Shown here: positions 128 to 54,687 of the stretch, in pieces
Position numbering within the stretch: position 1 is the first letter of the stretch
Layout of the letters: each line of letters opens with the position of its first letter
IMG/VR virus record: IMGVR_UViG_3300037212_000012
Location: 1-54,687 of that record
Direction: 5' to 3' (one strand)
Source: a virus
Lineage: Duplodnaviria; Caudoviricetes
Length of the DNA stretch: 54,687 nt
Made by a program: the position numbers and the translations under genes
The notes under the pieces: generated by a model
Seen by the model: only the letters and a program-made list of their open reading frames with translations
Database searches by the model: none
Told to the model about the DNA's origin: nothing

Positions 128-973
128 CTTGGGGGCATAGTAGCTTGTTACGTAGCCTCTAAACATTGGGTGGGTGGTTATGACCTGCCCCAGGTTCAAG
201 TCCCAAGTGGCGGGCAGACTCAGAATCTCAACCAGTTTGTCCACAATTCCCGAATCCTCGCCAAATTTGGTCTTTTCGAGATCCCGCATGACTCCAAGCC
301 AGACCTTTGCCCTTTCGCTTGATTCCTCACAGTTATAACGACATGGGAACCACGGAATTACCTTGAACCCATAATAACGAAGATCTGACCTTATTAGAGG
401 GTCAAAGTTTGAAAGAGATATTGAGCCATCTAGATTCTTTTTGTGGGGCATGGCTAAGGCGGCTGGCATTACGGGATCAAAATTAACCTTGAAGTTCTCT
501 GTAAAGGCCGCGCTGCAACAATCCGGATAGCCCAGGTATCCGCCCATCCTAGCGTGATCACAACCGCCGAGTTTGAGTTCTGCCTTTACGAAGTCCTCGG
601 CTATATCGAGATCGCGAGCCACCACCCCAAATACCATGACATCTGGCCCGAGCCGATCTGTTGGAAAATGGGTGTGAGAGAACCCTTCGTATTGGAGGCT
701 CCGCCTCATTGGCAGAAACGCCAGTTTGTCCCTCATTATTTGGGCTATCTCGTTATCGTAGTTGTGCGGGGATAGGTGGAAGATATTCGCCTCCCTCTTG
801 CCCTGCCTGACCATTTCATACTCACTTTCATAGGCTAAGGTCGCTATTTTTCTCTTTAATCCCACTAAACCATGATCGGGATACTTTGCCATGAAAGCTG
901 AAAATGGTTTTGGATCTGTGATCTGAGTTTTTAAAGTTTCCTGATTTTGATTATCCATATTTACGCCCCCCAT
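86..973 (-). CDS. DUF483-like Cys-rich protein, putative accessory of the radical SAM cassette
   Basis: GGYLGYPDCC..AF and IPWFPCRYNC motifs resemble archaeal DUF483 proteins. Gene abuts or overlaps the end of the rSAM gene; the true start may be the second Met (958). Confidence 0.55.
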   Translation of the reverse strand: MGGVNMDNQNQETLKTQITDPKPFSAFMAKYPDHGLVGLKRKIATLAYESEYEMVRQGKREANIFHLSPHNYDNEIAQIMRDKLAFLPMRRSLQYEGFSHTHFPTDRLGPDVMVFGVVARDLDIAEDFVKAELKLGGCDHARMGGYLGYPDCCSAAFTENFKVNFDPVMPAALAMPHKKNLDGSISLSNFDPLIRSDLRYYGFKVIPWFPCRYNCEESSERAKVWLGVMRDLEKTKFGEDSGIVDKLVEILSLPATWDLNLGQVITTHPMFRGYVTSYYAPKRQVIHFEFDPKAD

Positions 974-2208
974 GAATCACCATGCGGCGAATCTCCGTGA
1001 TCATCGTAATCTCCATGACCGCCTGATTCCGAATCTCCATGCACCTGCTGTCTTGGCTGGCAGGCCGGTTGCTGGTGCCGCTGTTGCTGCTGCGGATATG
1101 GTTCTACCCATTTATTTTTAAGGTAGTAATCTTGATAAAAGTTTGGTACATCTATCGCCAGCCTGCGGCCAGGGTCCATAGCTCTTATGTGACGTTCCAA
1201 GTATTGCAGGAGTGCATAATAAGCCTCGCAGAATTCGGTTTTATTTCTCACGTCGCCGCCTACTCCCTCAGCAGGGCAACCGCCCGCGCAGATTTCAAAA
1301 TATCTGCACCCCTTGCACTGGGTCTGCTTTAGCATCTCTGACCGGACTAAAGTGGCCTGATGGGGTTGGTAGTAATATCCAGACTCAAAGCATCTGTCGC
1401 ACCTGGATAGATTGCCATCCGGCATTATGGTGGTGCATCTGGTCACGAGATAGTCACATCTCGTATAGAGACAGCAATTTAGCCCCTGGCCTTTCAGGTT
1501 TTTCATATTCTCTATGACCACTGCGGGCCGGAACTCATTTGGATGCTCTATATATGCCTGTGCAAATTTGAGAAAGGCTATTTTCAGCTCTTCGGGCGAG
1601 AGTTTATACTTCAACAGATGGCTTGCCTTGCAACTCGGCAGGAACATTTGGTTGTATCTACCATCGCTCTTGGTTTCAATTCCCCACCGAATTAATTCAT
1701 CAATCTTAGAAGGCGATGCATTGAGTTTAGTGAGAACCGTTATGGTGCCCACCTTTATCCCTTCGTCCTTCAGCCACTTTATGTTTTCCTGTAGCCTCTT
1801 TTGGTACTCTCGGTTGGCTTTCTTATCCCTCGGACCTCTTAAGGTATTGAATTTTGCCGGTCCATCTATCGAGACACCAACGCTCTGCATATGATATTCC
1901 TTAATTAACCTGATGTGTTCTGCCGTGAGATTCCAAAGGGCTGTCTGCATTGAGGGTTGACCGCCAACCGACTTTATGGTTTCCAATGAGAACTTAAAAT
2001 CTTCTATTGGCAAACTGGTTACGTCTCCGCCGTGGAGGATAACTTGGGGATGTTCATCCTTGCCCCATTGTTTAGATATGTCGCGCAGGGTAGCCGCCAT
2101 AGCCTCTTTATTATATCTCCCCGGTATGGATGGCTTGTTCTCGTCCTCAAAGCAATATTCACAACCTGTAGGGCAGTCCAACAGCATGTACCATAATATC
2201 GTGTTCAT
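961..2208 (-). CDS. Radical SAM/SPASM-domain enzyme (peptide/protein maturase type) with HGD-repeat C-terminal tail
   Basis: CPTGCEYC (CxxxCxxC), LHGGD, VGVSIDG; SPASM cysteines in IMPDGNLSRC and CKGCRYFEICAGGCP...C; Q-rich linker, then HGD x4. Confidence 0.93.
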   Translation of the reverse strand: MNTILWYMLLDCPTGCEYCFEDENKPSIPGRYNKEAMAATLRDISKQWGKDEHPQVILHGGDVTSLPIEDFKFSLETIKSVGGQPSMQTALWNLTAEHIRLIKEYHMQSVGVSIDGPAKFNTLRGPRDKKANREYQKRLQENIKWLKDEGIKVGTITVLTKLNASPSKIDELIRWGIETKSDGRYNQMFLPSCKASHLLKYKLSPEELKIAFLKFAQAYIEHPNEFRPAVVIENMKNLKGQGLNCCLYTRCDYLVTRCTTIMPDGNLSRCDRCFESGYYYQPHQATLVRSEMLKQTQCKGCRYFEICAGGCPAEGVGGDVRNKTEFCEAYYALLQYLERHIRAMDPGRRLAIDVPNFYQDYYLKNKWVEPYPQQQQRHQQPACQPRQQVHGDSESGGHGDYDDHGDSPHGDSWGA

Positions 2209-2249: not shown

Positions 2250-5243
2250 CTAATCGTAGAATGTATTGTCGTGTGGGGTATCCTTGTGCGGTAAGTCGTT
2301 ATGGTTATCTGCGTGAGGCGCATCTCCGTGTGGGATGTCCCTGTGGGGTATTGGATTATCGCTATGCGGTGAATCGGAGTGCGGTGCATCTTCGTGCGGT
2401 ATCCCGCAATCGCAGTGCCAAGACGAATCTTGGAAACTGGCTCCTTCTGAGTTGGCGTGGGCCGTGTTGCCGTGTGGTACTTCTGCCTGTATTACTTTTG
2501 CTGGCGTATTGCACCAGCTTGGGTCACCTGTGCTATCCGAATAGCCATGTTGGGTGAATAGAATCTGATAATCCCAGATAGGCTTATATTCAGGTCCGGG
2601 ACCTTCGTGTGAGCCTGTCACAATTGCATGACACCAGCTAGGATCACATTTTGGGCTTGATTGCTGGCAACCGCTCGGGTCTGGATTCCCTGTTGAGGCG
2701 CTTCCTGTGATAGTTGTGCATTCATCTATGTAGGCACCGTGATCACAATGATCCTGGTTTAAGAAGGGCACTGCGTCTTGGTTTGCGTGGAGCGTGTTGC
2801 CGTGGGGGGTGTAGGGCTGATTGGCATGGTTTGAGAAATCTGGAGTCGGACAATCACATTCATGATCTGCGTGAGGAGTGTCTGAGTGCGGCGTATCTGT
2901 GTGGGCTGGTCCACCATCGTTATAGATAACATCATTGTGAACGATATCGCTATGATGCCAATCATCCGAGTGCGGAGTATCCGAGTGCGGAGAGCCTGCG
3001 CAATCGCAATGGATTGCCTTGTCTGTGAAGGGCACTGAATTCGAATCGTAATGATTATTATCCAAATGAGAGTCTATATGCAGATTGTCATCGGAATAAT
3101 CGGTGTAACCGTCTTCGTAACCTGCGTCTCCATGCTCTACCGCGGGAACATTGAAATGGTCGTCAAAGTCTGGTGAGACTAATGAGGGGTCGTAGCTATT
3201 TTTATGGGGTACTGCCGCCTGAATGACTTTGGCTGCATCGTTGCACCAGGTCGGGTCTAGGGAGGAGTCTATATAAGCAAACTGGTTGAAATCAACCTGC
3301 CCGTCAACCATATGGCACCAACTCGGGCTACATTTCGGATGGCTCGGCGGGCATCCTCCTGAGTAGCCTTGCAGCATGGTGCATTCATCTGTCCAGATCC
3401 CACTGTTACAATGATCCTGGTTTATGAACGGAATGGGATCAGCGTCCGCATGACCACAATCGCAAAAAGGCATATCGGTAAAGCTATCACTATGCGAAAC
3501 ATTGCCGTGGACTATTTCGTCATTATGGCCCCCGTTGTGTTCATCTTGATAAGGTGCATCTCCGTGCGGCACATCATCGTGGTTTGAGTCTCCATGCGGT
3601 GTGTGGTCCCAAGGCGAATCTGCGTAGATATCCTGATAATTATTTTCATGAACCGGGCCGGGCGTATTCGAATGATTGCAAAAGTCTGAATGCTCGATTA
3701 CTTGGTTGGTATCCTGCCAGTTTTGGTGAATCGAGTCTGCAAAAGCTCTGTCGGAGTAGTTTGAAAAGTCTGCAAAAGCTCTGTCGGAGTAGTTTGAGAA
3801 ATCTGAAAATGTCGTATTATTATGGGTGGTATAGTCTGAATGCGCTTGATTTCCAAATGGACTGTCGGCGTGATTCGTATCAATGTGGTATGGGCCGTCG
3901 ATATGCGAGACATCGGAATGGGTAACATCGCTATGATTTGAAAAATCCCCATGACTAGAATCGATGTGGGCGGTATCGCCGTGAGCTCCCGTATGATTAT
4001 AATGAGCCACGTCACTGTGGGAACTATTTTCGTGGGCTAGATCTACATGGGATGATGGGGAATCCGTATGCGGGTCGTTATAATGTCCCGACATGTCGCT
4101 ATGGGGGGTATTCCCATGTGCGTTATCGGTATGCCAGTTATGCTGATAGCTATCATAATACCCATCATTGTGCTGCTGATAAGCGTAATCTACATGGGCC
4201 TGGTTTCCGTGCGGATTCCCGTCATTATGTGCTGTATTGCCGTGGTTTGCGAAATCCGAATGTGAGATATCTCCGTGCGAAGCATCTGTATGTGGCGTGT
4301 CGCCATGATCATTAAAATTGCTAAATGGGGTATCTCCATGACTTGCGGAGTTTGTGTGATCATTGTAATTGCTAAAATCCGTATTTGAGAATGGCGTATC
4401 ATTGTGGTTGGTCCAATCGGAATGTGCACTGCTATTTTCAAATACACTATCGGCATGCGCTATATCATGATGGTCCGAAAAATTTCCAAACGGCGTGTCG
4501 CTATATCCTGGATCGTTAAAATGTGACTGGTCGCTATGATCAGATATATCGAGATGAGCCTGATTTTCGAAAGGTGTATCAATATACTCAGAATCGTTTG
4601 AAAAGGCTACATCCTCATGATAGCCTGCGCTGGCATCATCAACATAATATTCGATGGCATCGGAGTGAGGGGTATCACCATGCTCAACCCCTCCCTGGTC
4701 GGCGTGCGGATTTTCACACCCTTCGTTGAGATGGTGATATGCTTTATATCGGTAACCTTCCACCTCATCTAAATATGCAGAATTGGCATGGGACGAATTG
4801 CACCAACTTGGATCTGATGAGCTTTGATTATGTCCATATTGGAGAAACCGTGTGTGGGTTGCCCCGTCGCCCGGATCATAGCTGCTACATTCTGAAGTTT
4901 TTCCTGACCTTGGGTCGCTGGGCGGACATCCTGGCTGTCCGGTTGATGGGTCTATCCAAGGTTCCCTATCAAGAAGATAGATAGGTACCCATTCGTCTTT
5001 GGGGATACCGCTATTACAATGCTCTGCGTCGCCGTGCGGTGCGTCTAAATGGCCGATTGGGTCGTTTGTGGCTTCGGGACCTCCCGGATCGGATTCTTGA
5101 GCTGGACCGAGACCATCTGCGAAAACGTATGTGTCGTTGTGTGTACCAGAATCGCAATGCGCTACATCTAAGTAGGGAATCTCTGCTACATCTTCATGTG
5201 AGCTATCTAGATGTGCATTGGTCCAACCGATACATTCACCCAT
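2250..5243 (-). CDS. 997-aa His-x-Asp/Asn repeat protein; candidate radical SAM substrate and tail-associated protein
   Basis: About 90 H-x-[DN] motifs by manual count, often 5 residues apart (e.g. PHSDSPHSDNPIPHRDIPHGDAPHAD). Also F/Y/W-x-[DN] motifs and three Cys-rich DPSWC-type modules. Confidence 0.85.
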   Translation of the reverse strand: MGECIGWTNAHLDSSHEDVAEIPYLDVAHCDSGTHNDTYVFADGLGPAQESDPGGPEATNDPIGHLDAPHGDAEHCNSGIPKDEWVPIYLLDREPWIDPSTGQPGCPPSDPRSGKTSECSSYDPGDGATHTRFLQYGHNQSSSDPSWCNSSHANSAYLDEVEGYRYKAYHHLNEGCENPHADQGGVEHGDTPHSDAIEYYVDDASAGYHEDVAFSNDSEYIDTPFENQAHLDISDHSDQSHFNDPGYSDTPFGNFSDHHDIAHADSVFENSSAHSDWTNHNDTPFSNTDFSNYNDHTNSASHGDTPFSNFNDHGDTPHTDASHGDISHSDFANHGNTAHNDGNPHGNQAHVDYAYQQHNDGYYDSYQHNWHTDNAHGNTPHSDMSGHYNDPHTDSPSSHVDLAHENSSHSDVAHYNHTGAHGDTAHIDSSHGDFSNHSDVTHSDVSHIDGPYHIDTNHADSPFGNQAHSDYTTHNNTTFSDFSNYSDRAFADFSNYSDRAFADSIHQNWQDTNQVIEHSDFCNHSNTPGPVHENNYQDIYADSPWDHTPHGDSNHDDVPHGDAPYQDEHNGGHNDEIVHGNVSHSDSFTDMPFCDCGHADADPIPFINQDHCNSGIWTDECTMLQGYSGGCPPSHPKCSPSWCHMVDGQVDFNQFAYIDSSLDPTWCNDAAKVIQAAVPHKNSYDPSLVSPDFDDHFNVPAVEHGDAGYEDGYTDYSDDNLHIDSHLDNNHYDSNSVPFTDKAIHCDCAGSPHSDTPHSDDWHHSDIVHNDVIYNDGGPAHTDTPHSDTPHADHECDCPTPDFSNHANQPYTPHGNTLHANQDAVPFLNQDHCDHGAYIDECTTITGSASTGNPDPSGCQQSSPKCDPSWCHAIVTGSHEGPGPEYKPIWDYQILFTQHGYSDSTGDPSWCNTPAKVIQAEVPHGNTAHANSEGASFQDSSWHCDCGIPHEDAPHSDSPHSDNPIPHRDIPHGDAPHADNHNDLPHKDTPHDNTFYD
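3734..3797. repeat. 33-bp tandem duplication inside the HxD gene (FSNYSDRAFAD x2)
   Basis: AGTCTGCAAAAGCTCTGTCGGAGTAGTTTGA at 3734 and 3767. Confidence 0.9.
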
Positions 5244-5587: not shown

Positions 5588-8500
5588 TCAAGCTCCCTTA
5601 CTAAATATAGTGTCGATGAAAATTTGCCCTTGTATCGATGCGGAGACAGCACAATGACAGGGTTGACCTGGGAAAGACTTGTTTGCCAATCCTAATTTGA
5701 GAGTATACGTGCCAACCGCGTTTACATAATCCGGATTTAATATTACCGGTCCAACCGTTCTTTCGCTGTCCGAAATTATCGCAGGCGATCCAACGACCTC
5801 CTTGAATACTCCTTTTGTATCCCCGATATATATACTTAGATACATTTCTGGGTCGGCTGGGTCGGGTGCTGGACCTGCCTTGAGGCTGTTTGCCTTTAAT
5901 AGCTCTTCAGTGGCGGGATTGCCAAAATTGTAATTTCCGACATTTATTATTAGAGGGACCGGTTGACCGTTCTTATTCGTCGTGCCTATTGTGAGATAAT
6001 CGTGCAAGGCATCATTCGTAAATTCTTCAGTCTCAAAAGCTTCAATTTCGTGGTCGTGGTCTGCTGGCGAAACGTCCACCGCGCCCGATGCCGGACCGAT
6101 ATCACCCGAGAGTGGATGCTTATGTATGGCTGAAGCTACGTCTATGGCCTCGACGTTGACTGATGTTACTACCTCTTTTGATGCCGATCCTATATCGGTG
6201 ATGACATCAACGCTGCGACTTATGACATTGAAAAAGTTCTTGCTACAATTGACTGCCGTACAGCAGTCCGCGGTTAGTTCAGCAATTGCCGAATCTGTCG
6301 ATAAAGATAATTGCCCTGCTACCAGATCAGAATTTACGTCGATGTTCTGAATAGCATTGTCAGTGTCGTCGCATGTCCCAATTTCTAATGAGTTGGTGTG
6401 AGTATGCAATGCTACCGCACAAGAGACCGATGCCGCCGAAGGTAGGGTCTTGAGCGATGCTACCGGATGCTTATGAACCGCGGAAGGCGTAGAAGCGCCG
6501 CCCCCACCTCCGCTCGAACCGTCGCCTCCGCCGCCTCCGCCCTGGCTGCCTGTTGGGGAGGAAACGGTAGCATTCGATCTATTGATTGTGATATTCAATA
6601 CCAGAGATTCAACGTTAAGAGTCTTATCCGGGATGTCGAAAGTGGTCTCAAGCTCAAGGTTGTTATCAAGATTATCCTGGCTCCAAGACCAACTAAAGGG
6701 CTGGATTGTGTCGGTCTGATGCTTGATATATTTGTCAACCATATTTTTTAGGGCCTGCCAGACCTGTTCAGGCTCAATAAGCTTATCTCCCGCCTTGATG
6801 GTCTGCTTGGTTCCATCTCCAATCTGAATGTCTAGCTCCTGGACCCTTAGACAGTTCTCATAAGCAAGGCGCTTGTTTCCAACCTGGAGATTTGCCAGAA
6901 CATAAATCTCGTCGCCTAGATTGCGGGTATCCAGAATACCGCTTTCGCTCTTTACAACTAGCGGAGCTTCAAATGTAATATTCTGGCTTGGGAGCATCTT
7001 GTCGGAGAGGTAATTGCTGGCGAATTTCTCGGCCATTGACTCGCTATGTTGTCCAGGATCGGCATATCGAACGAACCGACCGCCTCTGCCCATATTAACG
7101 TGCTCCCCAGCTATTACGGCTGTGCTGCCCTGGCCGAAACCGGCCACTATGACGCCATTGACCTGATAACGAGAGTCGGCCAATGTGAGATCCTTGATAG
7201 CGAGCAGATTATCGCTGTCCAGATAACGCCCGGCTGGATATGATTTGCTGCCCCTTCCGGCGTGGTCCATGACATCGATGTAGCAGATCCCTCCCCTATA
7301 GGATTCTTCGAATTCATAACCCGCACAGGTCAGGAGGTTAAAGATCACTTCGTAAGGGAGATCCCCGTTTGCGGTCTCCCAATAGAGAATATTTTCCGTT
7401 AGGGCGTCGCCTGTGATCTGGCCTAATCTAATCGGTACTATGCCTTCCCATATATTCGGGACGCTGATTATGTGGTAGTAGGGGCTCGTTTGGTCTGCTA
7501 GCCTGATGTATAGTGTTTTATTATTACTATCATGGTAATAACCTGAATTTGTGCCCGTCTCTAGGTCGTCCAAGGAGAGCCTTGTTATCAGGGCGGTACC
7601 GTCTGAGTACATCTTTGAGATCGTGTAAGGTAATCCTGAATAAATCCATTTATATACGCCTTTTTCTGTGTTTTCGTCATCCCATAACTCATAATATATA
7701 CAACTATTCATTATATATATCATGCCTGGAATATTGTTATTATTGACGGGCTCGGAGCTATTTAATATTTCTGTAAATGATACATTCTGCCAGATGTATT
7801 TTCCTAAGTAGAGTCCACCCTTGGGCGGATTGGGTTTGGCGACCTCCAGGAAGCCAAAAAGATCGGCTAAATATGTGCCATTCTCTTGCCATTGGCATGA
7901 GCGAGAGATGCCATTAAATCGCCTTTTGTCACCTGCTATGTAGATCGTACATAGGCAGTCCTCCGGAATGGGTTCACCGAGGTACATTTTAGCCTCGGAT
8001 ATCTGGCCGTATTTCCAGCTAATATGGCCTGAGACGATATCAGGATTTAGCGCCCCTCCCTGGACCGTTGTAACCTCTATCCAATCGTCTTTTGAGACCG
8101 AGACGGGCAGGTTATAATATCTGGATTGGGGCCAACGCAGATCCAATATCTTACAAGCCCATTGCTCGGAGTGCCACTTAAGGGACAGATCTCCTCGTGT
8201 AGAACCGCCAGAAAGCCACTTGAGAGATAACCGTCGATTGGTGAATTGTTCTGAAGGCCACTCCAGGGTGAGAACTTTAGTAGCGTGTGCATTTTCGGTA
8301 AGATTGGACCAGGTAAAATACCCATATATGCCGCCGTAATCGAAACTCTGTGAAAAAACGCTTATTGTAGGCCATTGAATTGTTAGATGTCTTCCTGTTG
8401 GGCCTCCCATAGACCAGATACATGTTAGATCCTTGGCAGTCCATTGTGAGGAGGGCCATTTTAAGCTGAGGAGTCTTGCTGCTCCCTGCTTTGAGGGCCA

Positions 8501-9094
8501 TTTTAAGCTGAGAAGACGAGAAGCCCATTGCTCGGAGTGCCATTGCAGGGTTAATGATTTTAAGACTTGTTGCTGAGCATACCATTGCAAGCTCAGTTCT
8601 TTGGCGGACCATTGTGAGGAAGGCCATTTTAAGGACAGAATATGAGATATCCACTGTACTGAAGCCCACTTTAGACTCAGTAATGCGGATATAAAATTCT
8701 CTGAAGGCCATTGCAGGCTCAACGATTTTAAAACTCTTTGTTGAGATGTCCATTGTAGGTTTAATGATTTTAAGACTTGTTGCTGAGCATACCATTGCAA
8801 GCTCAGTTCTTTGGCGGACCATTGTGAGGAAGGCCATTCTAGCGTGAGCGTATTTGCGATGAATTGCTCTGCGTCCCAGAAGAACATCAGAGATTTAGCG
8901 ATGCTCCCCCCTGACGACCACAAAACCGTTAGACTTTGTCCTGCGGTTCCTCCGGCGCACCACCCAAAAGTCAAGTCCTTAGAGAGCCATTGTGCGGAAT
9001 GCCATTTTAGGCTAAGGCTCCTTGACATGTGCGCAGCTTCTTGGGGTTGAGACCAAGTGAAATGGCCGTATATTCCGCCGTAATCGCTTGCCAT
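5588..9094 (-). CDS. Tail tip/hub protein with N-terminal 14-aa Trp repeats and C-terminal HxH fibre motifs
   Basis: Directly follows the tape measure gene. Central segment (NGVIVAGFG...NLGDEIYV...LRVQEL) resembles siphovirus tail hub proteins. HKH/HTH/HKH/HDH motifs near the C-terminus. Confidence 0.7.
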   Translation of the reverse strand: MASDYGGIYGHFTWSQPQEAAHMSRSLSLKWHSAQWLSKDLTFGWCAGGTAGQSLTVLWSSGGSIAKSLMFFWDAEQFIANTLTLEWPSSQWSAKELSLQWYAQQQVLKSLNLQWTSQQRVLKSLSLQWPSENFISALLSLKWASVQWISHILSLKWPSSQWSAKELSLQWYAQQQVLKSLTLQWHSEQWASRLLSLKWPSKQGAARLLSLKWPSSQWTAKDLTCIWSMGGPTGRHLTIQWPTISVFSQSFDYGGIYGYFTWSNLTENAHATKVLTLEWPSEQFTNRRLSLKWLSGGSTRGDLSLKWHSEQWACKILDLRWPQSRYYNLPVSVSKDDWIEVTTVQGGALNPDIVSGHISWKYGQISEAKMYLGEPIPEDCLCTIYIAGDKRRFNGISRSCQWQENGTYLADLFGFLEVAKPNPPKGGLYLGKYIWQNVSFTEILNSSEPVNNNNIPGMIYIMNSCIYYELWDDENTEKGVYKWIYSGLPYTISKMYSDGTALITRLSLDDLETGTNSGYYHDSNNKTLYIRLADQTSPYYHIISVPNIWEGIVPIRLGQITGDALTENILYWETANGDLPYEVIFNLLTCAGYEFEESYRGGICYIDVMDHAGRGSKSYPAGRYLDSDNLLAIKDLTLADSRYQVNGVIVAGFGQGSTAVIAGEHVNMGRGGRFVRYADPGQHSESMAEKFASNYLSDKMLPSQNITFEAPLVVKSESGILDTRNLGDEIYVLANLQVGNKRLAYENCLRVQELDIQIGDGTKQTIKAGDKLIEPEQVWQALKNMVDKYIKHQTDTIQPFSWSWSQDNLDNNLELETTFDIPDKTLNVESLVLNITINRSNATVSSPTGSQGGGGGGDGSSGGGGGASTPSAVHKHPVASLKTLPSAASVSCAVALHTHTNSLEIGTCDDTDNAIQNIDVNSDLVAGQLSLSTDSAIAELTADCCTAVNCSKNFFNVISRSVDVITDIGSASKEVVTSVNVEAIDVASAIHKHPLSGDIGPASGAVDVSPADHDHEIEAFETEEFTNDALHDYLTIGTTNKNGQPVPLIINVGNYNFGNPATEELLKANSLKAGPAPDPADPEMYLSIYIGDTKGVFKEVVGSPAIISDSERTVGPVILNPDYVNAVGTYTLKLGLANKSFPGQPCHCAVSASIQGQIFIDTIFSKGA
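8551..8838. repeat. 78-bp exact direct repeat (8551-8628 and 8761-8838) in the Trp-repeat region
   Basis: TTAATGATTTTAAGACTTG...GAAGGCCATT twice, offset 210 bp = 5 x 14 codons. Confidence 0.92.
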
Positions 9095-9100
9095 TGAACC

Positions 9101-12100
9101 TTATCGATTTAGATTGTTGTCGGTTTGGATCTTCGCTATCTTATTTGCCAGCTCGTCTATATTGCCTATAAGAATTCCATCGAAATGATAATGATTTTCT
9201 ATCACAGACGGCTTGCCGCCGCCTTTTATTAATGCCCCTCCGTGAGGCACCACATATTCTTCACCCTCCTCGCCTACGAGGGCGGCTGTTGCTCTTGATG
9301 GGGTCGGGCCGCCTGATGCATAGGTCGGGTATTGAGAAGTGAATCCAGTAAATCCGCTACCCCAGACAGAGGTATCGCCAGCGTGGCCGAAATAATTTGC
9401 TAGATTGGATAAACCTCCGCCGTTACTGCCTGCCGAGCCTCCGCCGCCTCCAACAACGTCAATACCTACTGTTATTGTTGCCGACATACCATTAATAGTA
9501 CTGACCGCTTGATTCGCTGATGCGAGCGCAGGGGTGGTGTCGGCGTCAGTTTTAATCGTGGCTGACTTCGCGCTCATATCCTTGAGCATTGCATCGGTCT
9601 GTTGCTTGTAGGAGCCTGTGTCGAGGTTTAGGACCTGACCGTTACTCTCTCTGCTTATACCCTGTTGGGCGTAAGTATCATACAAGGCCGAACCTGTCCT
9701 AGCTGGGATAACAGGAGGATAGCCGTTAGCCTGATCCCAGGCGGCGTATTTGTCGCCTGAGGCGCCGATATAAGCGCCCCTGAATAGGTCTGTCTGGGCC
9801 TCTTGCCATTTGCCAAAATCGGACATGACACAACCGGTACAATCCGAGACTACCCCTGATAACTGATTGAATCCGACGCTGGCATTTGCTACTTGGGCGG
9901 AACAAGATCCCGCTGCTCCGCCACAAGTTGAACAGGACGAACCTAAATTTCCTAGAGCTGTGGAAATCGCAGGAATCCCCGCCCCTGACAGTGTAGCGTT
10001 CAGTTGGTCGATAAGGAGGGACCAATCTATAGTTGCGGTTTCAAGGGCTCGGGCTGATGCGTCAGTTGAAATTTTGAGGTTATCTGCTGCTATGGCGGCT
10101 TTGTCTTCTGAAATAACTTTATCAGAATCATATTTATCCCACATGCCACCTAACTTAGATATGGCGTCTGTGTCATATTGTGCGAATTTTGATGCCTGAT
10201 CTGAAGCTGTGCCCATATCTTTTATGCTTTTACCAAGATCATCGGTTTTAACTTGCGTATCGGCGAGATTTTTGGGGGTGTAAACATTCGGTTGTGGGGT
10301 CGCTGGAGGGTATTGTGTCATTCCAGGTTTGGTGGTTGTGGTGATAGGGGTGAATGACCCTGCGCCCCCCACTGGCGATTTAAGACGGGTGTTCAGGTCA
10401 ACATCCTGCTGTTCCATATAGTTATAAGCCGATGCTGCTAGGCCCTCTATTGCAGGTTTCCATATCGAAGACCATATAGTACTTCCGCCTTGCGTTGTCC
10501 CGGCGACTTTATCAGCACCCGATCCCTGAATTATGCCAGTATTGCCGCCTATTCCAGAGCCGGGGATTACATCGCCAGATTTATAAATGTCTTCGCCTGC
10601 GGATGCTCCCATTCCAAGTTTTCCAAGTAACCAAGCTTCGCTGCCTCCAAGTTTATCAGACCATGATTGCCCGGATGCGGATTGGGTTTGTGGAGCCGGA
10701 ACATTGGTTTGTGGCGCGGGGGCTGGGGTATTGACGATATCATTTGGATGCGTTGCAAGATACTGGTTTATGCCACTCTCGGCAGCGGATTGTGAAGCAT
10801 ATTCAGAGCCATAAGCCCCCTGCATCGGCTTTCCGGTTGATGCGTCCATTATAACATATGTTGGGCCGCCTAGAACACTCTTATCACCATTTGGATTAGC
10901 AGCAACAGAAAACCGGGTTTGATTAACTTGCGGGGCTGATGTGCTTTGACTTGTGCCTGTGCCAGTTCCTGCCCCTTGTTGAATTAGATTGAATCCGCCT
11001 GCCGCCTGCGATGCACCATTTATCGCACCGACCAAATCCCCACTGAATGCATCGGCTAACATTTCGACAGATGCTATGACTCCTGCTATTGCCCCCACTG
11101 CACTATCATGGAAATTGTAGATTGCCTGGATAGCACCGATTGTGCCTTCATCAAAATTCAGTTTCATGGTGTCGGCGGCTAATTTGGAGTGATCGCCGAG
11201 TACGGTTTCAAGAGGTTTTAGAAGCGAATCGAGCGGCGTTTTTCCAAATAGAATATCCTGCCAGTTTAGCCCGGCCCCAATTACACCTTCCACATAAACA
11301 AGGGCCCCATTCAGAAGAGTAGCGAGAGCGTTCCCTAATGCGCCTGCATCCTGGTTATCTATGCCTGATGCAAACCGTGATACTAGGTTTTGGCCAGCCT
11401 TTTCGCCCGCTGCGCTCCAATCATAATTTTCGAAGTCCTGTGCTAGACTATCAAGGGCTCCTTTTATGTCGCCTGATTGAATTTTCTTGATAAATCTGTC
11501 GAATGCGTCGTAACCAGGACCTGCCAGCCAATTAGACCAATCTTGCGCAGGTCCGGCTACAACCTTTCCAATCTCATGGCCCATCTGGTCGAAAGTTTCG
11601 CCACCTCTATTTAGAGCGCGAGAAAGGTCATCGGTCTTTTGGCCTAGATCTGTGTCGGCTCCCGCTGCATCTTCCAATCCAGCTTTTAAGGCATATACTT
11701 GCGGCAGATTTTGAGCTATAGATAAAGCCATGCCAGCGTTTCCAGCGCCGAAAATTGGGGTAAACAGATCCTTCCCCGTTTTCTCCTGAGCTGCATATAA
11801 ATCTTGGATAGCCTTGATAGGGCCTTCTGCTTGTAATCCCGAGACTGTTAGGCCGGTACCTGTCAGATATTGGCCTATACCTTTTGCGGCTACAACCGTC
11901 TGGGTAACTTTACCTTTTGCCGATGTTGTAGATTTAAGCGCAGCATCCGATGACTTATCGAGATTGGCAGCAAAACTAACTAAAGTCGAACCGATCATGT
12001 TGGGCATTGCTTGAGGGGCTACCTGTTTCATCGTCTCTAACAATGCCAGCTCGCCGGTAAACCCGCCCAATGATTGGGACACTGCTTGTGACCCCTCCAT

Positions 12101-12976
12101 GGTCATTAAGGCAGACTTGCCTCGACCGCCTAGTTGGGTGGGGTCTAACGAGGGAATCATTTCGTAGGCTTTGGAGTAGACATCCATTGCCTGTTGAGCG
12201 GTTAAGCCAGATTTCTTATAGAGCTCTGTGGTTGACTGAATTGTTTTAGCAACATCAGCAGGGCTATTCATGGTGCCGACTGCCATGTTCATATACTGGT
12301 TTAGCTGGGCATCCGACATCTTCGAGGTATCAATGTTATAGGACCTGAGAAGCCCTAACATCCCATCAACATCGGACGCTGAAGTACCATATTGTCGCCC
12401 TAACTTCAGTGACTGGTCGGTAATGGCAGAAGTCGCAGAGGCCATGTTAGATTGTGTGGTGCCCCCTGACATCGCAGCCCTCGTTGCCGCATCGTTCAGG
12501 TCTGCGTAACCTTGAATATCATTCTGGATGCCAGCATAGATGTCTTCAAGACCTGAGACAACCGCGTCAAAGGCTGCTACTCCCGCGCCTATGGCGGCTC
12601 CCGCCGCGACCATGTCCCACATAGAGCTGCTTGCCCGGTCTGCTCCACTAGCGACTTCATCGAGAGCCGCGGCGTTTTCACCCGCGCTTAAGACGCCTTG
12701 AGCTGCTTCTTCTCCAGCCTGGCCTAAACTCCTAAGACTCTCGGCTCCTGTGTCAGCGGATGCTTGGATTCTGTCGCCTACTTCATCAGCAGAATCCTTG
12801 AGGACTTCAAAATCTGCTATGATTTCATCTGTCGGTAAAGCTAGTTTAGTGCCTTGAAAAGCGTCTTCGATTTCTTGGGCTTTGTCCTCTGCCAGGCTTA
12901 CCGCATCATTTAGAGCATCTTCAAGGTCATCAGTCGTGCCCTTTATCGCGATGCTAACCGAACCGGCGTCAACCAC
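9101..12976 (-). CDS. Tail tape measure protein
   Basis: 1291 aa, Ala/Gly/Ser-rich helical; N-terminal DAGSVSIAIKG; C-terminal YASGG...ALVGEEGEEYVVP typical of TMPs; position in the tail module. Confidence 0.88.
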   Translation of the reverse strand: MVDAGSVSIAIKGTTDDLEDALNDAVSLAEDKAQEIEDAFQGTKLALPTDEIIADFEVLKDSADEVGDRIQASADTGAESLRSLGQAGEEAAQGVLSAGENAAALDEVASGADRASSSMWDMVAAGAAIGAGVAAFDAVVSGLEDIYAGIQNDIQGYADLNDAATRAAMSGGTTQSNMASATSAITDQSLKLGRQYGTSASDVDGMLGLLRSYNIDTSKMSDAQLNQYMNMAVGTMNSPADVAKTIQSTTELYKKSGLTAQQAMDVYSKAYEMIPSLDPTQLGGRGKSALMTMEGSQAVSQSLGGFTGELALLETMKQVAPQAMPNMIGSTLVSFAANLDKSSDAALKSTTSAKGKVTQTVVAAKGIGQYLTGTGLTVSGLQAEGPIKAIQDLYAAQEKTGKDLFTPIFGAGNAGMALSIAQNLPQVYALKAGLEDAAGADTDLGQKTDDLSRALNRGGETFDQMGHEIGKVVAGPAQDWSNWLAGPGYDAFDRFIKKIQSGDIKGALDSLAQDFENYDWSAAGEKAGQNLVSRFASGIDNQDAGALGNALATLLNGALVYVEGVIGAGLNWQDILFGKTPLDSLLKPLETVLGDHSKLAADTMKLNFDEGTIGAIQAIYNFHDSAVGAIAGVIASVEMLADAFSGDLVGAINGASQAAGGFNLIQQGAGTGTGTSQSTSAPQVNQTRFSVAANPNGDKSVLGGPTYVIMDASTGKPMQGAYGSEYASQSAAESGINQYLATHPNDIVNTPAPAPQTNVPAPQTQSASGQSWSDKLGGSEAWLLGKLGMGASAGEDIYKSGDVIPGSGIGGNTGIIQGSGADKVAGTTQGGSTIWSSIWKPAIEGLAASAYNYMEQQDVDLNTRLKSPVGGAGSFTPITTTTKPGMTQYPPATPQPNVYTPKNLADTQVKTDDLGKSIKDMGTASDQASKFAQYDTDAISKLGGMWDKYDSDKVISEDKAAIAADNLKISTDASARALETATIDWSLLIDQLNATLSGAGIPAISTALGNLGSSCSTCGGAAGSCSAQVANASVGFNQLSGVVSDCTGCVMSDFGKWQEAQTDLFRGAYIGASGDKYAAWDQANGYPPVIPARTGSALYDTYAQQGISRESNGQVLNLDTGSYKQQTDAMLKDMSAKSATIKTDADTTPALASANQAVSTINGMSATITVGIDVVGGGGGSAGSNGGGLSNLANYFGHAGDTSVWGSGFTGFTSQYPTYASGGPTPSRATAALVGEEGEEYVVPHGGALIKGGGKPSVIENHYHFDGILIGNIDELANKIAKIQTDNNLNR

Positions 12977-54290: not shown

Positions 54291-54527
54291 TTATTTCAAA
54301 TCTTCCTCTTTTTGTTTCCCAAAACCCGCCACTTCCTTAGTTACTCTATTTGTTATCAGAATTTCATAGGCGGATTCGCCGGTATCCAGTTTCTCTACGT
54401 CTTCAGGTGATAACAGTTTTAATACCGCTTCCCTGAACCTGGCCGGGCATGTGGAGCTGACAATGTAGTTTGGCGGGCCGCTGCTAGGTTTCATTCCGGG
54501 ATTTTTTCTGTGCAAGATCCACCACAT
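54291..54527 (-). CDS. Small hypothetical protein directly after the DUF483-like gene on the circle
   Basis: With one copy of the 64-bp unit the junction reads GAT TAA ATC ATG TGG TGG. Confidence 0.5.
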   Translation of the reverse strand: MWWILHRKNPGMKPSSGPPNYIVSSTCPARFREAVLKLLSPEDVEKLDTGESAYEILITNRVTKEVAGFGKQKEEDLK

Positions 54528-54687
54528 GATTTAATCCGCCTTTGGATCGAACTCGAAGTGTATAACCTGCCGTGTGCAAGATCCACCACATGATTTAATC
54601 CGCCTTTGGATCGAACTCGAAGTGTATAACCTGCCGTGTGCAAGATCCACCACATGATTTAATCCGCCTTTGGATCGAACTCGAAGT
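54510..54687. repeat. 64-bp unit, about 2.8 tandem copies at the window end
   Basis: Copies start at 54510, 54574 and 54638 (partial). Confidence 0.95.

Follow-up and report, generated by a model that had tools for sequence, protein, structure and literature searches.

A conserved H-x-D tail on a phage radical SAM/SPASM enzyme encoded beside an H-x-D-repeat protein

Why should a phage radical S-adenosylmethionine (SAM) enzyme end in copies of a motif that recurs throughout the protein encoded next to it? The question is raised by IMG/VR virus record IMGVR_UViG_3300037212_000012 (Caudoviricetes), the 54,687 nucleotides of which were analysed as a whole (hereafter, the window). The window contains a cassette that encodes, in this order, a 997-aa protein rich in H-x-D (HxD) repeats, a 415-aa radical SAM/SPASM enzyme with a tail of His-Gly-Asp (HGD) motifs and a 295-aa DUF483-like protein (Table 1). 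The reading that we tentatively prefer, while granting that it may well be wrong, is that the tail is a conserved, flexible and tethered substrate mimic in a triceptide-like or HXS-like protein-modifying system.

The tail and its distribution in the enzyme family

The minus-strand translation of 961-1110 is WVEPYPQQQQRHQQPACQPRQQVHGDSESGGHGDYDDHGDSPHGDSWGA, followed by the stop codon, and forms the C-terminus of the 415-aa open reading frame (ORF). Both strings that the original prediction quoted from this C-terminus, and its count of four HGD motifs, match the translation. All four motifs lie within the last 27 residues of the enzyme; shuffles of these 27 residues contained 0.24 HGD on average and never four in 20,000 trials. 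No HxD is present in residues 1-371, and the other 43 minus-strand ORFs of the window (12,025 residues in total) contain no HGD and seven HxD. In the AlphaFold2 (AF2) model, residues 379-415 are disordered, with a predicted local distance difference test score (pLDDT) of <50, and the confidence falls from ~90 to ~50 across the linker that precedes the tail. In the cluster representative P0001, which is near-identical to the enzyme, the fourth HGD is replaced by HCD (…DSPHCDSWGA).

A word-based homologue search returned 39 proteins, of which 32 are family members and seven are outgroup matches resembling the anaerobic sulfatase-maturating enzyme (anSME). At least one HxD was found in the last 60 residues of 25 of the 32 family members and at least two in 20 of them, while none was found in the outgroup (0/7). 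The tail persists in enzymes that are only 21-30% identical to that of the window, and P0029 has as many as 11 HxD. A profile search of 1.84 billion representatives yielded 881 clusters (50% identity) at E <= 1e-30; among the 144 of the best 150 matches that were examined, 94 are no longer than 520 aa, and 65 of these short representatives contain at least two HxD in their last 70 residues. Two scans of IMG/VR identified 95 loci (96 with the window) with 86 distinct enzyme ORFs. After 10 partial ORFs were dropped, 76 were kept, and 57 of these phage-locus enzymes have at least two HxD after the core. The original prediction had named the retention of HxD tails by homologues as a test of its idea, and the outcome was positive in each set (20/32, 65/94 and 57/76). 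Because the tail is kept by relatives in many phages, it is likely functional.

In a quick maximum-likelihood tree of the 76 cores, tails were found in all major clades, and the 13 tail-less rows require only two changes. Comparison within two clades showed a terminal block (GH.N.PHGDHMNHI.R; HGDRPHGDRPHGD) that does not vary, preceded by a linker that could not be aligned and that contains insertions and deletions; read from the alignment, this is direct evidence that selection constrains the motif but not the linker. Since the linker is hypervariable in both sequence and length among the relatives, the Gln-rich composition of the window's linker is incidental.

The median distance from the core to the start of the HxD cluster is 49 residues, the median distance from its end to the C-terminus is 8 residues, and the number of HxD in a tail varies from 1 to 25. 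One locus (L078) encodes two radical SAM enzymes in tandem (8001-9506 and 9508-11451) with tails of 130 aa (12 HxD) and 279 aa (25 HxD), the second of which comprises about ten IPHGDHTD units with spacers between them, and the representatives P0070, P0118 and P0136 carry 17-25 HxD. The tails form a continuum towards substrate size. Other subfamilies have tails of the EHLDG..RHLDS or CxCG type, or add DP.WR..NPWW after the HGD block. In P0136, the 18 tail HxD are followed by what appear to be two hydrophobic, membrane-like segments (residues ~500-567).

The tail also links the enzyme to its neighbour, as was originally proposed. If an ORF counts as HxD-rich when it carries 9 or more Hx[D/N] and their density exceeds 3%, then 62 of the 76 loci contain one, in most cases immediately upstream of the enzyme gene and ending a few bases before it. 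Of the enzymes in these 62 loci, 49 have at least two tail HxD, three have one and ten have none. In six of the 14 loci without an HxD-rich ORF, the enzyme lies within ~2.2 kb of a contig end. Furthermore, substrates with more motifs tend to be accompanied by tails with more copies (Spearman rho 0.42, p 6e-4, not corrected for phylogeny). The original claim that HGD dominates the 997-aa protein was right as to the H-x-D frame, of which the protein has 67 copies, and wrong as to the HGD form, which accounts for only 11 of the 67, HSD being the commonest.

The enzyme, its repeat-protein neighbour and its DUF483-like partner

The enzyme core matches Pfam PF04055 (Radical_SAM; 48 bits against a cutoff of 29.5, 2e-12) and PHROG 1802, a radical SAM family (2.5e-24). 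Its CxxxCxxC motif at C12/C16/C19, which is invariant in 43 sequences, places it in the radical SAM superfamily. SPASM domains that hold two auxiliary clusters follow the formula CX9-15GX4C, gap, CX2CX5CX3C, gap, C. The corresponding set in the enzyme, namely C246, C251-x13-G265-x4-C270, C298-x2-C301-x5-C307-x3-C311 and C327, is invariant in the same 43-sequence alignment, and the match to TIGR04085 (27.4 bits) just exceeds the cutoff of 27, so that the enzyme can be assigned to the SPASM group. The AF2 model built from the 43-row alignment has a mean pLDDT of 87.3. When the family profile was compared with the PDB, the best match was the anSME 4k36 (1.1e-29; full length, profile positions 2-357), and the second-best was the triceptide synthase ChlB (9gm3), through its radical SAM domain in the N-terminal part (2.3e-21). 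The enzyme starts right at the radical SAM motif and therefore has no N-terminal leader-binding domain.

The curated NCBIfam maturase families that were matched all scored far below their cutoffs: TIGR04083 (72 bits against 300), DynA (67 against 450), anSME (TIGR03942; 61.8 against 349.45), AmcB (60.8 against 425), YhhB (51.9 against 445), GrrM/OscB (35.1 against 310) and FxsB (24.6 against 370). HxsB and HxsC were absent from the best 25 of the 32 NCBIfam matches to the enzyme, the weakest of the 25 having an E-value of 2.1e-4. PADLOC reported only generic matches of the enzyme to viperin-like radical SAM proteins (~1e-9) and no match for the repeat protein or the DUF483-like protein. In three other members of the family (P0057, P0147 and P0160), the core is split by an insertion of ~350-400 aa, which may be an intein or another inserted domain; the C-terminus of these proteins still carries 4-5 HxD.

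The 997-aa protein contains 67 HxD and 92 Hx[D/N], whereas composition-preserving shuffles yielded 14.9±3.5 HxD with a maximum of 29. The dominant spacing between its HxD motifs is five residues. The protein is laid out as four HxD arrays with three Cys-rich modules between them (residues ~70-165, ~605-690 and ~825-925). By eye, the second and third modules share DHC..G...DEC...GC..S.PKC.PSWCH...DP[ST]WCN..AKVIQA.VPH.N; a self-BLAST of the protein at 1e-4 did not report the Cys-rich modules. No Pfam, NCBIfam or PHROG family matched the protein. The idea that the H-x-D-x-x arrays form a pentapeptide-repeat beta-helix found no Pfam match at E <=0.01 in this protein and eight related substrates. 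A lectin-like Laminin_G_3 domain was detected in two related substrates (1.7e-18 and 9.9e-15).

Substrates of related cassettes were also compared for shared ends (L012, L013, L015, L020, L021, L024, L025 and gp13 of the phage Cumys, at L026 4928-5959). Many of the repeat proteins have an N-terminal domain with two or three units of GS.W.EG..L.Y.D..G..R, and many are capped at the C-terminus by H.D[QNK]P.[FVY][VE]G. The 997-aa protein has neither this N-terminal domain nor the cap; its own C-terminal ending, which resembles F.NFCNH.DTY, is shared with L001, L003 and L004.

The 295-aa protein scores 20.2 bits against Pfam DUF483 (PF04467; cutoff, 25), and its homologues in L051 and L045 score 26.8 and 31.7 bits, respectively; in its nearest Atlas clusters, DUF483 is found in 16-40% of the members. 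A homologue is encoded in the locus of 69 of the 76 enzymes, and C152, C153, C211 and C215 are invariant in the DUF483-like protein. Its AF2 model is confident (pLDDT 87.7). Foldseek found nothing in the PDB for this model at E <= 1e-3, and a profile search against PDB sequences found nothing below E 0.95. A wide search with VIA-align returned 2guk (Z 6.9; root mean square deviation 3.9, 106 aligned) and the cysteine methyltransferase NleE (4r29; Z 5.2; root mean square deviation 3.0, 103 aligned), both within the range that is common for this tool.

The modelled complex of the enzyme with the DUF483-like protein reached an interaction prediction score from aligned errors (ipSAE) of 0.81, as compared with 0.28 for the best of three controls, with runs agreeing in at least 47% of the contacts and with a partner pLDDT of at least 80. 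The mark set for ipSAE, which this complex attained, is reached by 58 of 80 solved complexes and by 2 of 110 mismatched pairs, a calibration that is only rough for the custom alignments used here. The predicted binding site of the DUF483-like protein is thus on the enzyme's SPASM domain, where the modelled interface comprises residues 254-297 and 319-322. This prediction agrees with the existence of single-chain radical SAM-DUF483 fusions, which are also mentioned in the consulted text of Kolesnik et al. (2024; PMC11437467). A viral-contig scan seeded with such fusions returned only unfused cassettes.

In the larger of the two clades without tails (L036, L045/L047 and L051-L053), the DUF483 protein is longer (476-488 aa). 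The long proteins of L051 (2994-4448), L045 (7995-9425) and L036 (4585-6051) show weak, below-cutoff matches to class I SAM methyltransferases, and the gene order there is substrate, DUF483-methyltransferase, a gene of ~200 aa and radical SAM enzyme. Another locus (L017, 9974-15518) encodes two radical SAM enzymes, two DUF483 proteins, no tails and a 228-aa HSN-rich protein (17 Hx[DN], of which one is HxD), and looks like an Asn version of the system.

Two very large ORFs, of 1168 and 1291 aa, lie directly upstream of the cassette in the window. They had no family match in the Pfam and PHROG scans and are taken to be tail or tail-fibre genes. The 1168-aa ORF (5588-9094, minus strand) opens with a 14-residue unit, L[ST]L[KQER]W... 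(e.g. LSLKWPSSQWSAKE), that is repeated ~13 times, and a homologue of the ORF lies directly upstream of the cassette in L001. Related cassettes typically follow ORFs of 724-1711 aa. The cassette of the Thermus phage Cumys follows annotated baseplate and tail-collar-fibre genes; its gp13 has 54 HxD in 343 aa, its radical SAM enzyme (gp12) ends in EHGDYTDHGDAPHGDHWDG, and its gp11 is annotated as DUF483. Another phage, phiLo, encodes three consecutive HxD-rich proteins (58, 104 and 75 Hx[D/N]) after baseplate-wedge genes, and a radical SAM enzyme with 9 tail HxD ~4.4 kb from them. In tblastn, the window enzyme matched the radical SAM enzymes of Cumys, phiMa and phiLo with E-values of 8e-27 to 1e-21, that of Cumys being 29.7% identical (8e-27). 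From this gene context, the repeat proteins would be tail or fibre components.

The record is classified as complete and as bearing direct terminal repeats. A 64-bp unit (gtgcaagatccaccacatgatt...) recurs at its two ends, with two copies at 1-128 and nearly three at 54507-54687; this could be a genuine terminal repeat or have been produced by assembling the sequence as a circle. A single-protein scan of genome contigs recovered no cellular homologues.

Table 1. Positions of the cassette and of neighbouring features in the window
Feature	Position	Strand	Basis
Radical SAM/SPASM enzyme ORF, 415 aa	961-2208	minus	CxxxCxxC and Pfam Radical_SAM match
Catalytic core of the enzyme, residues 1-371	1096-2208	minus	Pfam, PHROG, family profile, AF2
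CxxxCxxC radical SAM cluster motif (C12, C16, C19)	2152-2175	minus	Invariant in 43 aligned family members
SPASM auxiliary-cluster cysteines	1228-1473	minus	Invariant in 43-sequence alignment; TIGR04085
Gln-rich low-complexity linker, residues 372-388, PQQQQRHQQPACQPRQQ	1045-1095	minus	Translation
HGD tail, residues 389-415, VHGDSESGGHGDYDDHGDSPHGDSWGA, four HGD	964-1044	minus	Translation, shuffles, relatives
Enzyme stop codon	961-963	minus	
997-aa Hx(D/N) pentad-repeat protein, presumed substrate	2250-5243	minus	Motif counts against shuffles
295-aa DUF483-like partner protein	86-973	minus	First ATG overlaps last enzyme codons
Very large ORFs of 1168 aa and 1291 aa, immediately upstream of the cassette	5588-12976	minus	ORF list

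Competing explanations for the tail

The mechanism that we favour is as follows. The enzyme, an anSME-like leaderless radical SAM/SPASM protein, would work in complex with the DUF483-like protein encoded downstream, and this complex would post-translationally modify the H-x-D/N motifs in the tail-fibre-like repeat protein encoded next to the enzyme, the 997-aa protein being the presumed substrate in the window. The most likely chemistry, modelled on triceptide synthases that act on H-x-x motifs, would be the abstraction of hydrogen at the beta-carbon of Asp or Asn, followed by a cross-link to the His two residues upstream. The HGD block would hang on a disordered linker of ~20-70 residues, enter the active site in cis and be modified there, and the tail would occupy or prime the enzyme while the long, repetitive substrate is absent. 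Priming, protection of the idle radical enzyme and autoinhibition, the last of which had been proposed originally together with self-modification, are candidate purposes. The repeats of the fibre would have diversified at their middle position, whereas the tail would have stayed HGD. Since the tail and the linker are disordered and the HxD cluster is near the C-terminus, the geometry is permissive for entry in cis.

Several observations weigh against this reading. Two clades, comprising 13 enzymes, have no tail, and 10 of the 13 have an HxD-rich (in L017, HxN-rich) ORF in the locus; L051-L053, for example, encode tail-less enzymes together with ORFs that have 62 HxD. Therefore, the tail is dispensable for the system in these phages. 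The radical SAM-DUF483 fusions in the representative set have only 0-3 HxD each and no C-terminal HxD cluster. The tail lies outside the confident part of the predicted interface with the DUF483-like protein. The scores of the enzyme are far below the cutoff of every curated peptide maturase, and its chemistry is therefore not readable from homology. The docking of the tail into the barrel, which the original prediction had suggested examining by structure prediction, gained nothing from the AF2 run, which docked the tail nowhere and left residues 379-415 unplaced; this counts neither way.

The remaining points against the preferred reading concern the motif itself. HGD accounts for 179 of the 290 HxD in tails (62%) and for 317 of the 1948 in substrates (16%); in the first 15 enzyme-substrate pairs, the corresponding numbers were 40 of 48 and 86 of 618. 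PHGDH[T/Y/W]D, often PHGDHTD, is a frequent tail unit, and the long tails of L078, P0070 and P0118 consist of PHGDHTD units with spacers of 10-17 residues, not of pentads. In L013, the substrate is dominated by HEN repeats, and the enzyme ends in HGDRQHGDRAHGDHGDHGDS. Judged by these sequences, the tail does not reproduce the substrate: the two have a common H-x-D frame and a different typical middle residue. This difference would be explained equally well by a separate function, for example the binding of metal. Recent gene conversion from the substrate gene was considered and rejected, as blastn-short gave only 8-14-nt matches and the longest exact word shared was 11 nt; in other parts of the enzyme gene, 150-nt windows taken as controls share words of 8-11 nt with the substrate gene.

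Such a metal-binding appendage is the main rival, although we regard it as unlikely. The His/Asp tail would chelate a divalent metal (Fe, Zn, Ni or Co), in the manner of the His-rich tails on metallochaperones, and never enter the active site; it would supply or buffer metal, or would bridge the enzyme to metal-binding HxD arrays of the fibre protein, and the likeness between tail and repeats would reflect a shared metal-binding function. The HGDH[T/Y/W]D consensus offers four potential ligands in six residues, H-x-D is described as the metal-binding pair of 2-oxoglutarate dioxygenases, and the middle residue of the tail motif is unlike that of the substrates. Tails range widely in their number of copies (1-25) and have been lost from two clades, and the His-rich tails of HypB, SlyD and UreE are likewise variable and sometimes lost. 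Moreover, His motifs of phage fibres and spikes, such as the HxH of T4 gp37, bind iron. However, one would not expect a generic metal-binding tail to vary with whether HxD motifs are encoded in a neighbouring gene and with how many of them there are, and it would not need Gly in the middle of 62% of its motifs. Fe-S clusters are normally delivered pre-assembled, which also speaks against a metal-supplying tail.

The bolder form of self-modification appears quite unlikely. In this case, the enzyme would cross-link its own HGD tail, and the modified tail, chemically identical to the repeats of the fibre, would co-assemble with the HxD arrays (e.g. through shared metal sites), so that the enzyme would either travel with the tail fibre or serve as a primer or ruler for processive maturation. 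If it were true, the enzyme would be the first of the radical SAM type to have its core peptide built in, and there would be a class of phage fibres consisting of tens of enzymatically cross-linked His-x-Asp rings.

Somewhat more doubtful is a docking or recruitment peptide, which would bind the DUF483 partner or the non-repeat domains of the substrate, be neither substrate nor inhibitor, and act by holding the enzyme on the long substrate or on the assembling tail for processive action. The near absence of HxD from the fusions could be understood in this way, as could the conserved DP.WR..NPWW that follows the HGD block in one subfamily and the longer DUF483 protein, with its methyltransferase-like domain and other gene order, in the tail-less clades. 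However, the fusions may simply be a subfamily with other substrates, and the interface predicted for the DUF483-like protein is formed by the SPASM residues given above and not by the tail, residues not named in that prediction being uncertain, not excluded.

The relic of a precursor-enzyme fusion that the original prediction had offered, that is, a non-functional, low-complexity leftover of recombination or slippage with the repeat gene, could account for the variable copy number, the loss of the tail in two clades and the HCD of P0001, but is very improbable given that the tail is retained in all deep clades and in enzymes 21-30% identical to that of the window, sets an invariant motif block beside a hypervariable linker, has a consensus of its own (HGD/PHGDHTD) that is distinct from the substrates, and shares nothing with the DNA of the substrate gene beyond 11-nt words that are matched elsewhere in the enzyme gene. 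It is equally improbable that the module modifies DNA, as was suggested for Cumys and phiMa, with the HxD protein and the tail unrelated to the substrate of the enzyme: homologues of the radical SAM enzyme and DUF483 do occur beside deazapurine DNA-modification genes in some cyanobacteria, according to the text consulted (Kolesnik et al. 2024; PMC11437467), but the enzyme profile is closest to protein- or peptide-modifying SPASM enzymes, the repeat-protein gene is a near-constant neighbour (62/76 loci) and the enzyme itself bears the motif, the cassette is situated in tail modules and not in replication modules, and the idea explains neither the repeats nor the tail.

Significance and comparison with known systems

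If the tethered-mimic reading is true, phages apply the radical chemistry of peptides that are made by ribosomes and then modified post-translationally (RiPPs) to large structural proteins instead of small peptides, and a tail-fibre-like protein may have up to ~110 modification sites while its enzyme carries a tethered copy of its own recognition motif. Three-residue His cross-linking would then reach beyond natural-product peptides and HXS defence in bacteria to components of the virion, and DUF483 would be assigned a role. The tail would also provide a sequence handle on substrate recognition in leaderless SPASM enzymes, for which HGD or PHGDHTD may be the preferred motif. The family is large (881 clusters), and its cultured, non-pathogenic representatives, the Thermus phages Cumys, phiMa and phiLo, make these ideas directly testable.

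What is in print is the gene trio only. The radical SAM module of Cumys and phiMa has the same three-gene order as the cassette of the window, which thus belongs with it; in the text consulted, the function of its first gene is unassigned and DNA modification is proposed (Kolesnik et al. 2024, Viruses; PMC11437467). The words 'histidine' and 'His-rich' occur nowhere in that text, supplements aside, and neither the repeats nor the tail is described there; in the literature searched, again setting supplements aside, we found neither.

The closest chemical precedent would be the triceptide synthases HaaB, YhhB and HtkB, which, according to the consulted part of Phan & Morinaka (2024; PMC11499958), form His-C2 to C-beta cross-links on HAA, HNR and HTK, act on three-residue motifs that start with an aromatic residue and have precursors that can hold several motifs. 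Like them, the enzyme is of the radical SAM/SPASM type, H-x-D/N fits the three-residue frame, and the adjacent substrate has repeated aromatic-x-x motifs (92 Hx[DN]). The enzyme does not belong to any of the curated maturase families considered (YhhB, GrrM/OscB, FxsB and AmcB). Another difference lies in the substrates, which here would be phage proteins of 170-1180 aa holding as many as ~110 motifs instead of short leader-core peptides, and the consulted triceptide text, its supplement aside, describes no enzyme with a motif-bearing tail (PMC11499958). The cross-link chemistry proposed here is inferred from this analogy, and the entry of the tail into the active site and its modification are likewise expectations of the model.

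The HXS system shares the logic of a repeat protein, a radical SAM enzyme and an accessory protein. As described in the consulted text of Li et al. (2026; PMC13128918), it is a bacterial anti-phage system in which the HxS-repeat protein HxsA is matured by radical SAM enzymes (HxsB and HxsC), with the radical SAM enzyme in complex with a small partner (HxsD), and in which His and the third residue are essential. HXS itself is bacterial and defensive and has five repeats, two radical SAM enzymes and a periplasmic effector (PMC13128918), whereas the phage system is found in tail modules, with HxD/N in place of HxS, tens of repeats and a DUF483 partner instead of HxsD. By the ranking of NCBIfam matches, the repeat type and the partner type, the phage cassette is not a member of HXS.

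The enzyme resembles anSME (4k36) in its radical SAM barrel and two-auxiliary-cluster SPASM domain and in having no N-terminal peptide-recognition domain, and anSME likewise acts on a beta-carbon in whole proteins. However, the enzyme is far below the equivalog cutoff (TIGR03942) and is not an anaerobic sulfatase maturase by this measure; there is no sulfatase among the neighbouring ORFs of the window and no C/S-x-P-x-R motif nearby, and anSME has no substrate-like tail. A tail of this kind is known from borosin-type OphMA, a methyltransferase that is fused to its own core peptide and modifies its own C-terminus, and of which split versions exist. OphMA is a SAM-dependent N-methyltransferase of other chemistry and fold, and its tail is the precursor of the product, whereas the phage enzyme has a large separate substrate of which the tail would be a minor, idealised copy. 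Among the radical SAM/SPASM enzymes that act on three-residue repeats, the phage system is unusual in two respects, the large structural phage proteins that would be its substrates and the motif carried by the enzyme itself.

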